A program made the position numbers and the translations under genes. 4,305 nucleotides of DNA from a virus. Taxonomy: Duplodnaviria; Heunggongvirae; Uroviricota; Caudoviricetes. The notes below the pieces were generated by a model. It saw nothing but the letters and a program-made list of their open reading frames with translations. It was not told the DNA's origin and did not search any database. The DNA lies in the IMG/VR virus record IMGVR_UViG_2582580934_000008, positions 1 through 4,305 of that record. The stretch is one strand, 5' to 3'. Below are positions 2,041-3,000 of this stretch, in pieces (position 1 is the stretch's first letter; every line of letters starts with the position of its first letter).

Positions 2041-2247
2041 ATGACCAGCAATATCATCAGCGCCATTCTGAACCTTGTATTCCTGGAAGTGGGTGTAATA
2101 GCGATTTATCTGCTTAACAAGCTAACAGGACAAAAAGAGCGCTTTATTGTTCTCAACGTTCATTACCTCGCCGCCTATACCAGAGGTCTTTTCCCGACCA
2201 CTATTGGCGCGGTGCTCATAGCGTTTGTTATTTGGCTTATCGGGTAG
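2041..2247 (+). CDS. Small predicted two-helix membrane protein (68 aa), unknown function
   Basis: ATG 2041 lies 10 nt after the cox-like stop. The product MTSNIISAILNLVFLEVGVIAIYLL...LFPTTIGAVLIAFVIWLIG has two hydrophobic helices separated by a short basic loop. The SD is weak (GAAGG 18 nt upstream). The same frame is open back to an ATG at 1906, which would overlap cox-like by 125 nt; I judge that less likely. Confidence 0.5.
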   Translation: MTSNIISAILNLVFLEVGVIAIYLLNKLTGQKERFIVLNVHYLAAYTRGLFPTTIGAVLIAFVIWLIG

Positions 2248-2258
2248 AGGCACAAAAA

Positions 2259-2405
2259 ATGAATAAGCAACAGCAAAACAGCGAACCCCATCACATGAGG
2301 TTTCGCCGTAGATACTTCAAAAATGGACGTTATGTAGGATGCATCAATCGATTAGCCAAACAAGTGTTTAAAAGCAAAGGAGATACCTGTGGTAAGTGCA
2401 GATGA
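2259..2405 (+). CDS. Possible small basic Cys-containing ORF (48 aa); may be spurious
   Basis: ATG 2259 preceded by GAGG (2247-2250) with an 8-nt spacer. Product MNKQQQNSEPHHMRFRRRYFKNGRYVGCINRLAKQVFKSKGDTCGKCR; ends at TGA 2403-2405. Overlaps the 3' end of the minus-strand gene by 54 nt. Below the ORF-track length cutoff; no independent support. Confidence 0.2.
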   Translation: MNKQQQNSEPHHMRFRRRYFKNGRYVGCINRLAKQVFKSKGDTCGKCR

Positions 2406-2792
2406 GGCGGTGCTTTTTATTGCATCTATCGCCCCACTCTTGGTTGCATCGACAAGTTTATCTCCAAGCGATTGCTTAAGTGACTCTGGATCAAGTTTCA
2501 ATAATTCAAGTCCTTTAGCCGTAAGTACCGCCTTATCGAAACTTTCAAAAGGAACAGCATCAGCAGATACATAACCAGCAGCAATAAGCCACTCAATGGA
2601 GTAATAACGAAGAACAAGAGCTTCATGTTTTTGCTTTCTGACCGCCGGGTCCTTCTCTTCAAACGTTGGAGCGGAAACACCGGTTAAAGCACAAACATCA
2701 ATGGTTACTTTTCGGGGAAATGACTCATAAAGAAACGCAAAAGTTTTACCAACAGTTTCATTAAAAACATCAATATTTGAAGGTGTTGCCAT
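2352..2792 (-). CDS. Hypothetical protein (146 aa), encoded on the opposite strand to the early operon; candidate accessory (moron) gene
   Basis: Only substantial ORF across 2352-2792; its single ATG (complement of 2790-2792) is preceded by GAGG (complement of 2799-2802) with a 6-nt spacer; stop TAA is the complement of 2352-2354. Product MATPSNIDVFNETVGKTFAFLYESFPRKV...GISFAFKHLFG has ordinary protein-like composition. The 83-residue extension in the ORF track (to 3041) is Ser/Cys-rich and is the antisense of the 69-aa gene, so I exclude it. Low GC (~35-40%). No recognisable motif. Confidence 0.65.
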   Translation of the reverse strand: MATPSNIDVFNETVGKTFAFLYESFPRKVTIDVCALTGVSAPTFEEKDPAVRKQKHEALVLRYYSIEWLIAAGYVSADAVPFESFDKAVLTAKGLELLKLDPESLKQSLGDKLVDATKSGAIDAIKSTASSALTTGISFAFKHLFG

Positions 2793-3000
2793 GGATAACC
2801 TCACACAGACAAAAGAAACAGCCATAAAAGAACTATATGACGATTTACGTTCCATCATTACACAACAAAAATCAGGTCGGCTAGACCCTACACGAGCAAA
2901 AGCCGCATGGGAAGTGGCACTGGCCAACCGGGATACTGGAGTAATTAGTGAAGTTATGGCCGAAGTAATTTTTAAACTTACAAGAAACATCGGACTGTAG
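2791..3000 (+). CDS. Hypothetical small protein (69 aa)
   Basis: ATG 2791 preceded by AGGTG (2781-2785) with a 5-nt spacer; the only ATG near the start of the frame. Product MDNLTQTKETAIKELYDDLRSIITQQKSGRLDPTRAKAAWEVALANRDTG... is charged and likely helical. Low GC like the neighbouring minus-strand gene. Confidence 0.6.
   Translation: MDNLTQTKETAIKELYDDLRSIITQQKSGRLDPTRAKAAWEVALANRDTGVISEVMAEVIFKLTRNIGL

Follow-up and report, generated by a model that had tools for sequence, protein, structure and literature searches.

A mobile pair of divergent genes with overlapping start codons, nested in the early operon of a P2-like prophage: a candidate anti-phage module

Why should a phage carry, in the middle of its early operon, a gene that faces the other way? 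The question is raised by a stretch of DNA of 4,305 nt (IMG/VR record IMGVR_UViG_2582580934_000008, positions 1–4,305), referred to here as the window, which spans the lysogeny-control genes and the early region of a P2-like Escherichia coli prophage (Peduoviridae, P88/Xuanwuvirus-type). Its rightward early operon begins at cox and is driven by Pe. Within this operon a gene of 146 amino acids (aa), here called F, lies on the minus strand (2352–2792) and adjoins a plus-strand gene of 69 aa, here called s (2791–3000). Both open reading frames (ORFs), and a third of 68 aa on the plus strand (2041–2247), had been correctly placed by the original prediction, which was made from the sequence alone and which took all three for a horizontally acquired island of low guanine-plus-cytosine (GC) content. 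The reading favoured here is that F and s form a mobile two-gene moron nested in the early operon, in which F would be an effector expressed in the lysogen and s its lytic-phase neutraliser, probably with an anti-phage function. On the comparative evidence set out below, this is a proposal to which we attach about as much belief as doubt.

The two genes meet at a shared start, the hexamer CCATGG at 2789–2794, in which the ATG of s occupies 2791–2793 and that of F is the complement of 2790–2792, giving an overlap of 2 nt and zero intergenic DNA. As read from the sequence, the Shine-Dalgarno motif of F (GAGG, GAGGTTATCCATG on the minus strand; 2799–2802) is found inside codons 3–4 of s, and that of s (AGGTG, plus strand, 2781–2785) inside the antisense of codons 3–4 of F, which encode Thr-Pro. 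This Thr-Pro pair at positions 3–4 is conserved in the alignment of the F family (A1). Because there is no intergenic DNA, the promoter of each gene must lie within or beyond its partner. Moreover, with overlapping starts, and with the ribosome binding site of each gene contained in the opening codons of the other, the two transcripts would have to be complementary along both regions where translation begins.

The pairing is conserved well beyond this prophage. It was surveyed in 80 phage loci that encode relatives of F (33–100% identity), which form 43 clusters at 80% identity. A homologue of s is located directly upstream of F, and divergent from it, in 58 of the 80 loci, corresponding to 28 of the 43 clusters and including F identities as low as 33%. 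In 23 of the 28 s-bearing clusters the CATG overlap of the starts is retained, with the remaining five having gaps of 0–20 nt. No case of s without F was seen in the 80 loci, and the 69-aa gene is best described as the obligate partner of the 146-aa gene, a relationship that had escaped the original prediction.

The extent of the acquired DNA is defined by comparison with relatives that are free of the cassette. The island proper is a variable two-gene segment of ~0.7 kb at 2335–3029, and the sequence stays divergent from these relatives up to ~3050, so that the opening codons of the DUF4761 gene that follows are included. Against Citrobacter phage Shae_phiSM, positions 2036–2334 and 3051–4140 align at 89–91%, and between these flanks the window contains 716 bp where Shae_phiSM has 62 bp. 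Among 5,426 complete E. coli genomes, ~2031–2334 (the 68-aa gene together with the initial ~25 codons of the ORF after it) is conserved in 341 that lack the cassette, and 2335–3029 itself is present at 98.6% in one, FDAARGOS_943 (NZ_CP065615, 29.6–30.6 kb), and at 73% in two. As had been supposed, the slot is variable and the segment that occupies it is acquired and variably present, although it comprises two genes and not three. The 68-aa membrane protein gene belongs to the backbone, since Shae_phiSM aligns across 2036–2334 and the divergence starts after it; this alignment and the conservation of the gene in the 341 cassette-free genomes rule it out as a member of the island. A Morganella prophage has a 67-aa gene at the same post-cox position.

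Traces of the insertion can be seen at the edges. On the plus strand, a 48-aa ORF (2259–2405) begins with ~25 codons (2259–2334) left over from the N-terminal extension that the DUF4761 gene has in relatives, and the rest of it is antisense to the 3′ end of F. The remnant (MNKQQ...GRY.G) was aligned with the Shae_phiSM gene Shae_044, and the same relic, without an ATG, is found downstream of the F homologue in both of the 73% copies (L004 and L005). In view of this alignment and the ATG-less copies the ORF was treated as a relic and is probably not a gene; Pfam and PHROG scans gave no family match for it. A 16-nt direct repeat (2261–2276 and 3026–3041) reflects two MKQQ-type starts that bracket the insert. 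In relatives, the DUF4761 gene (L002 2243–2380) has at its beginning a pair of similar start motifs, MNKQQ... and, 36 codons away, MKQQ..., and the cassette sits exactly between them.

Base composition is a less telling guide. The dip in GC content that had drawn attention to the region is real, in that the lowest-GC 695-nt window of the entire sequence begins at 2308 (40.9%) and windows clear of the island lie at 42.9–50.1%. The dip is nevertheless modest, with 41.3% for the island (2335–3029) and 42.2% for 2041–3000, compared with 46.7% for the remaining window. The contrast with the surroundings had been overstated: the integrase gene, at 48.7%, is close to the ~50% given for it, but the genes rightward of 3030 are at 36–50% rather than ~55–57%, and 60-nt blocks across 2041–3000 vary between 33 and 58% rather than between 35 and 43%. 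As 3900–4200 is equally AT-rich, GC content alone would not establish an island. The small size of the dip and this second AT-rich stretch might be taken to suggest that the feature is no more than an antisense ORF that arose by chance in AT-rich DNA. Such an explanation is almost certainly wrong, and is refuted by purifying selection, by hundreds of diverged homologues of constant length, by confidently predicted folds and by the synteny of s. The genes are real, and their cassette has the character of a moron in showing presence/absence polymorphism between syntenic phages and a composition that differs, modestly, from that of its flanks.

The interval between cox and the DUF4761 gene varies in its contents. 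A survey of 80 IMG/VR loci that carry a DUF4761 gene revealed at least eight alternatives. They include nothing at all, the 68-aa gene with a short extension, larger cargos and another antisense gene, and the F/s cassette is the occupant in two of the 80. A further alternative, in phage vB_EcoM-569R5 (L001 3535–4155), is a pair of genes, one of 140 aa on the plus strand and, after it, one of 63 aa on the minus strand. In locus L160 the slot has an antisense gene of 130 aa. The slot may collect several unrelated modules that include an antisense gene.

Orientation, like pairing, is conserved. In 30 of the 43 clusters F opposes the operon genes that flank it to left and right, with s co-directional with the operon, and the rule holds in 22 of the 28 clusters that bear s; orientation was scored by the majority of flanking ORFs, with gene calls that are simple ORF calls made in this analysis. 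The claim that the 146-aa gene opposes the Pe operon has thus held family-wide, and the arrangement fits with a gene that is expressed in the lysogen and silenced in the course of lytic growth. In the window, the ORF map has an opposite-strand gene flanked on both sides by co-directional operon genes, which is the layout termed a ‘noncontiguous operon’ by the authors who described the Tai/Ati arrangement of phage phi80 (PMC11364771).

The cassette is mobile. In P2-like phages it is located in the early operon after cox in both E. coli and Morganella (46% identity), in the same slot with a different int and cox. In lambda-like Pseudomonas-type phages it is found between TerL and the head-tail adaptor/portal genes, and the syntenic phage Haddon is without the cassette and has an 11-nt gap at this TerL-adaptor site. 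In BcepMu-like phages the cassette adjoins genes for the tail sheath, tube and tape measure, and in Salmonella FSL SP-004 a Fic-like gene. The P2-like Klebsiella phage ST147-VIM1phi7.1 (L091 3299–5298) has an F/s pair of 24% identity with the identical 2-nt start overlap, flanked on one side by the portal gene and on the other by a retron-like reverse transcriptase with an XRE regulator. This is the portal-side P2 hotspot, which we take to be the site where old and tin lie. Finally, an element resembling an integrative and conjugative element (ICE; L089 6001–6483), with genes for an integrase, HicB, a TraG/TrwB coupling protein, DUF2859 and DUF3262, encodes a 160-aa F homologue without s that is co-directional with its neighbours. 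As there is no lytic cycle in an ICE that would need protection, finding F by itself in such an element was counted in favour of the effector-and-neutraliser reading.

What kind of protein, then, is F? It is acidic and cytoplasmic, and its start at 2792 is the conserved one, the raw ORF extending to 3041. The predicted structure, which is confident, consists of a winged-helix domain (residues 1–100), a flexible linker and a C-terminal helix (122–145). F belongs to PHROG 2266, for which no function is assigned, and matches it over the full length (E=3.3e-29, residues 4–141 against profile positions 2–143 of 144). The original statement that none of the products belongs to a recognised family holds only in part, as the 68-aa protein likewise has a place in a family, PHROG 14475, and neither family has an assigned function. 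A profile search with hmmsearch gave 1,589 representative F clusters at E<=1e-3 and 835 at E<=1e-10, and among the matches listed nearly all homologues are stand-alone proteins of 135–160 aa. The ratio of nonsynonymous to synonymous substitution rates (dN/dS) for F is 0.24 against the 73%-identical copy (L004), 0.15 against a 59%-identical protein and 0.21 against the Morganella homologue, and these values (0.15–0.24) indicate purifying selection. Searches of Pfam, NCBIfam, PADLOC and PDB sequences with F and s gave nothing beyond PHROG 2266, and a BFVD fold search with F had no match at E<=0.001. A ‘DUF2513’ label carried by one UniRef entry, the Morganella homologue, was not reproduced by a Pfam scan, and the term was not found in papers.

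F has no transmembrane (TM) segment, which rules out a membrane superinfection-exclusion role. Its isoelectric point (pI) is 5.7, in a family with a median pI of 5.0 and with 91% of members below 6. It is uncommon for a DNA-binding regulator to be so acidic, and a role in binding proteins is suggested. Taken together, the acidic pI and the lack of a TM segment favour a protein-binding cytoplasmic effector over either a DNA-binding repressor or a membrane exclusion protein. The winged-helix fold, however, would also fit an F that is a transcription factor, with s as an anti-repressor or co-regulator and the pair acting as a portable regulatory switch in lysogenic conversion or in the control of host or phage genes. 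The fold is one that F has in common with MarR/PadR regulators, but F differs from these in its acidity, its distinct C-terminal tail, the absence of an operator region and the absence of a Pfam match; none of 18 family members has a Pfam helix-turn-helix or MarR match even at E<=1. The overlapping start codons leave no intergenic space for an operator, and the operons and phages that carry the cassette are unrelated to one another, with no conserved neighbour that could be the target. The acidity of the family is an indirect argument in the same direction, and we regard a regulatory switch as unlikely.

The partner, s, is modelled as a three-helix bundle (helices 2–28, 33–44 and 49–64) with an AF2 pLDDT of 90.9, and a structure search gave no informative structural neighbours. 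Its dN/dS is 0.21 against the 73% copy (L004) and 0.6 against the Morganella homologue, and s, like F, is under purifying selection. Small helical proteins are typical anti-defence factors, and s is always oriented with the lytic operon. It could be envisaged from this that the functional part of the pair is s, for example as a factor for anti-defence or host takeover in the lytic cycle, and that F is a silencer in the lysogen phase or a chaperone with no anti-phage activity. Yet it is F that is the more conserved and widespread of the two (1,589 clusters), that often occurs without s and without which s is never seen in these loci; s also diverges faster (dN/dS 0.6 versus 0.21 for F with the Morganella homologue). 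This arrangement of roles is very unlikely.

A small mobile module of two genes, present in defence hotspots and conserved pairwise in a way that suggests physical interaction, might also be a toxin-antitoxin or abortive-infection module, with F as a latent toxin that infection sets off and s as the antitoxin. Against this, the genes are divergent with overlapping starts, which excludes the co-transcription expected of a type II toxin-antitoxin operon. F is found without s in 15 of the 43 clusters and in the ICE, and so is unlikely to be toxic by itself, and it contains neither an enzymatic nor a membrane domain. We consider a module of this type to be decidedly unlikely.

How the effector and neutraliser favoured here might operate can be outlined as follows. 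In the lysogen, the C repressor would silence Pe and we infer that F would be made from its own leftward promoter, in or just beyond s. A candidate for this promoter, TTGCCT-16 nt-TACAGT on the minus strand (2994–3021), was obtained with a looser consensus scan and has a −10 that overlaps the stop codon of s. It is the top-scoring site in locus L006, and an equivalent TACAGT is found at the s stop codon of a 73% copy (L008). A terminator-like hairpin followed by a U-run (minus strand, 2309–2278) lies ~40 nt downstream of the stop codon of F, and is not specific to the cassette because it is located in backbone-derived sequence. F, as a soluble acidic winged-helix protein, would most likely bind a component of the superinfecting phage, or another target, and so act as an exclusion or defence factor. 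In the lytic phase, transcription of the operon antisense through F would lower the expression of F, and the same transcript would yield s. The s protein may then bind and neutralise pre-existing F, allowing the carrier phage to avoid self-inhibition, and the overlapping starts would reinforce the mutual exclusivity at the RNA level.

A more ambitious form of this proposal holds that F/s represents an undescribed and widespread self-immune anti-phage family, with at least 1,589 F clusters in P2-like, lambda-like and Mu-like phages of Proteobacteria, and that the CATG overlap is an RNA toggle by which one mRNA is translated at a time. It is put forward tentatively, as something possible rather than probable.

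Several observations weigh against an effector paired with its own neutraliser. No s homologue is detectable in 15 of the 43 F clusters, meaning either that s is not always needed or that other partners substitute for it; a relaxed search with hidden Markov models of the 22 loci with F only found no s homologue adjoining F. In the P2-like slot s would be produced early, with the early operon, and in lambda-like phages late, so that the timing required is not uniform. A strict scan found no minus-strand sigma-70 promoter and the looser scan gave weak candidates only, and mapping of promoter consensus sequences gave no position that is conserved family-wide. Comparison with the PADLOC-DB 2.0 defence models gave no match for F or s at E<=1. 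Both proteins are named ‘hypothetical’ in every source, and a literature search by PHROG id and RefSeq accessions found no mention of either. The winged-helix fold, as discussed above, suits a regulator too. Lastly, the likeness to the Tai/Ati and Tab systems, which are considered below, is one of layout only.

The cassette is set in a window that is a mosaic. Positions 1–2030 have 98.5% identity to phage vB_EcoM-569R5 and encode the integrase (1–1008, minus strand), a C-type repressor (1063–1404, minus strand) and a Cox-like regulator of 173 aa (1509–2030, plus strand; Pfam Phage_Cox, PHROG 23196), which is the first gene of the Pe operon and the left border of the variable region. Positions 2036–4305 have 98–99% identity to a different lineage, which normally has a 95-aa Cox. 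The junction lies at 2030–2036, after the stop codon of cox and before the 68-aa gene begins at 2041, and the best coverage of the whole window by any one record in the phage and complete E. coli genome collections searched is <=83%. The Pfam Phage_Cox match spans only residues 58–129 of the 173-aa protein, leaving extensions of ~55 residues, acidic in character, at the N-terminus and of ~40 residues at the C-terminus; in relatives that share the downstream genes Cox is of 95 or 131 aa. The 68-aa protein has two TM segments, with a maximum Kyte-Doolittle hydropathy of 2.28, and its PHROG has no function assigned.

To the right of the cassette, in the rightward early operon, are the DUF4761 gene (3030–3371; Pfam PF15958, E=7e-70; GC 49.7%), which is the right border of the slot, a 105-aa ORF termed orf105 (3382–3699; GC 44.0%), a DUF4754 gene (3711–3953; GC 45.7%) and a gene for a hydrophobic membrane peptide of 37 aa (3950–4063; GC 36.0%) that overlaps the DUF4754 stop codon (ATGA). 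The 105-aa ORF contains a tandem duplication of 13 codons (ASAIDGVTPAGKN / ASAIDGVVPSEKN, ~3450–3530), its orthologues being of 92 aa, and BLAST alignments over it are split at 3470/3489 with overlapping subject coordinates. The 37-aa gene is followed by an AT-rich spacer with a palindromic hairpin at 4109–4122 (TCCGCGAATGCGGA) that is terminator-like on the minus strand, and 3950–4149 forms a second AT-rich patch comparable to the island. An Rfam scan of the window matched no RNA family.

The moron-like pattern that was originally suggested is one that F/s shares, in its layout, with characterised pairs of prophage defence and counter-defence genes (PMC11364771, PMC11087260, bioRxiv 10.1101/2025.02.27.640495). 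The closest parallel in organisation is the tail assembly inhibition system Tai/Ati of phi80, in which taiEcA (204 aa, minus strand) is expressed in the lysogen and atiEcA (76 aa, plus strand) is part of the Q-dependent late operon; Tai blocks the tail assembly of infecting phages and its partner restores it (PMC11364771). As with F and s, an antisense gene in a lytic operon is head-to-head with an overlapping small gene (~70 aa) oriented with the operon, the overlap being 2 nt in F/s and 20 nt in phi80 (orf63, 44365–44979, minus strand; orf64, 44960–45190, plus strand). Both systems occur in several hotspots and element types, and in both the partner is often absent. However, TaiEcA has 204 aa whereas F has 146 and is a winged-helix protein, and hhalign gave a probability of 0.1% for the F alignment (A1) with phi80 Orf63 and of 0.2% for the s alignment (A5) with Orf64.

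In Tab/anti-Tab of Pseudomonas phage JBD26, deletion of only the counter-defence gene kills the phage (PMC10884400). The defence gene of JBD26 is a small one on the minus strand with a promoter of its own, placed inside the late operon beside a plus-strand counter-defence gene, a layout that F/s resembles. The JBD26 genes are convergent, with overlapping 3′ ends and 83 aa each, whereas F and s are divergent and are found between cox and DUF4761 or, in other phages, between TerL and the adaptor; in addition, homologues of Tab are confined to JBD26-like phages but the F family is widespread. Comparison of F/s with JBD26 gp31 and gp30 gave an hhalign probability of 0.2% for both. Homology of F/s to Tai/Ati or Tab/anti-Tab is ruled out by these values (0.1–0.2%), and given the lack of profile similarity F/s is not a member of either family.

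The two remaining parallels come from Gram-positive hosts. In the Tha/Ith pair of staphylococcal phage 80alpha, antisense transcription leads to mutually exclusive lysogenic and lytic states (PMC11087260). An immune gene and its inhibitor are again found on opposite strands of a noncontiguous operon, but the polarity is reversed, with the inhibitor being the antisense gene, located inside the operon of cI, and Tha is a HEPN RNase whereas F has no nuclease domain. The TERi system of Listeria phage phi10403S (TerI, anti-TerI1/2) has an opposite-strand defence gene in the early lytic module that overlaps a self-immunity gene (bioRxiv 10.1101/2025.02.27.640495), and so is of the same position class as F/s, in an early operon. 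TerI is only 65 aa in length and is an ORF within the complementary gene, and it is likened to F/s by layout and not by sequence. GiPD474 of Gifsy-1 was also considered as a relative and was ruled out, as it is an unrelated protein with an ATPase domain.

Pairs of a prophage defence gene and an opposite-strand self-antidote have been recognised only recently, with Tab, Tai, Tha and TERi all dating from 2024–2025, and the known families are each narrow in distribution. The F/s cassette has a like logic with unrelated proteins, and is far more widespread. If F is a defence protein, a large new family would be added to this group, together with a genomic signature in the form of a lone antisense gene whose start codon overlaps that of a small operon-oriented gene. 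The overlap of the two start codons would, in addition, provide a clean model for the mutually exclusive expression of divergent genes.

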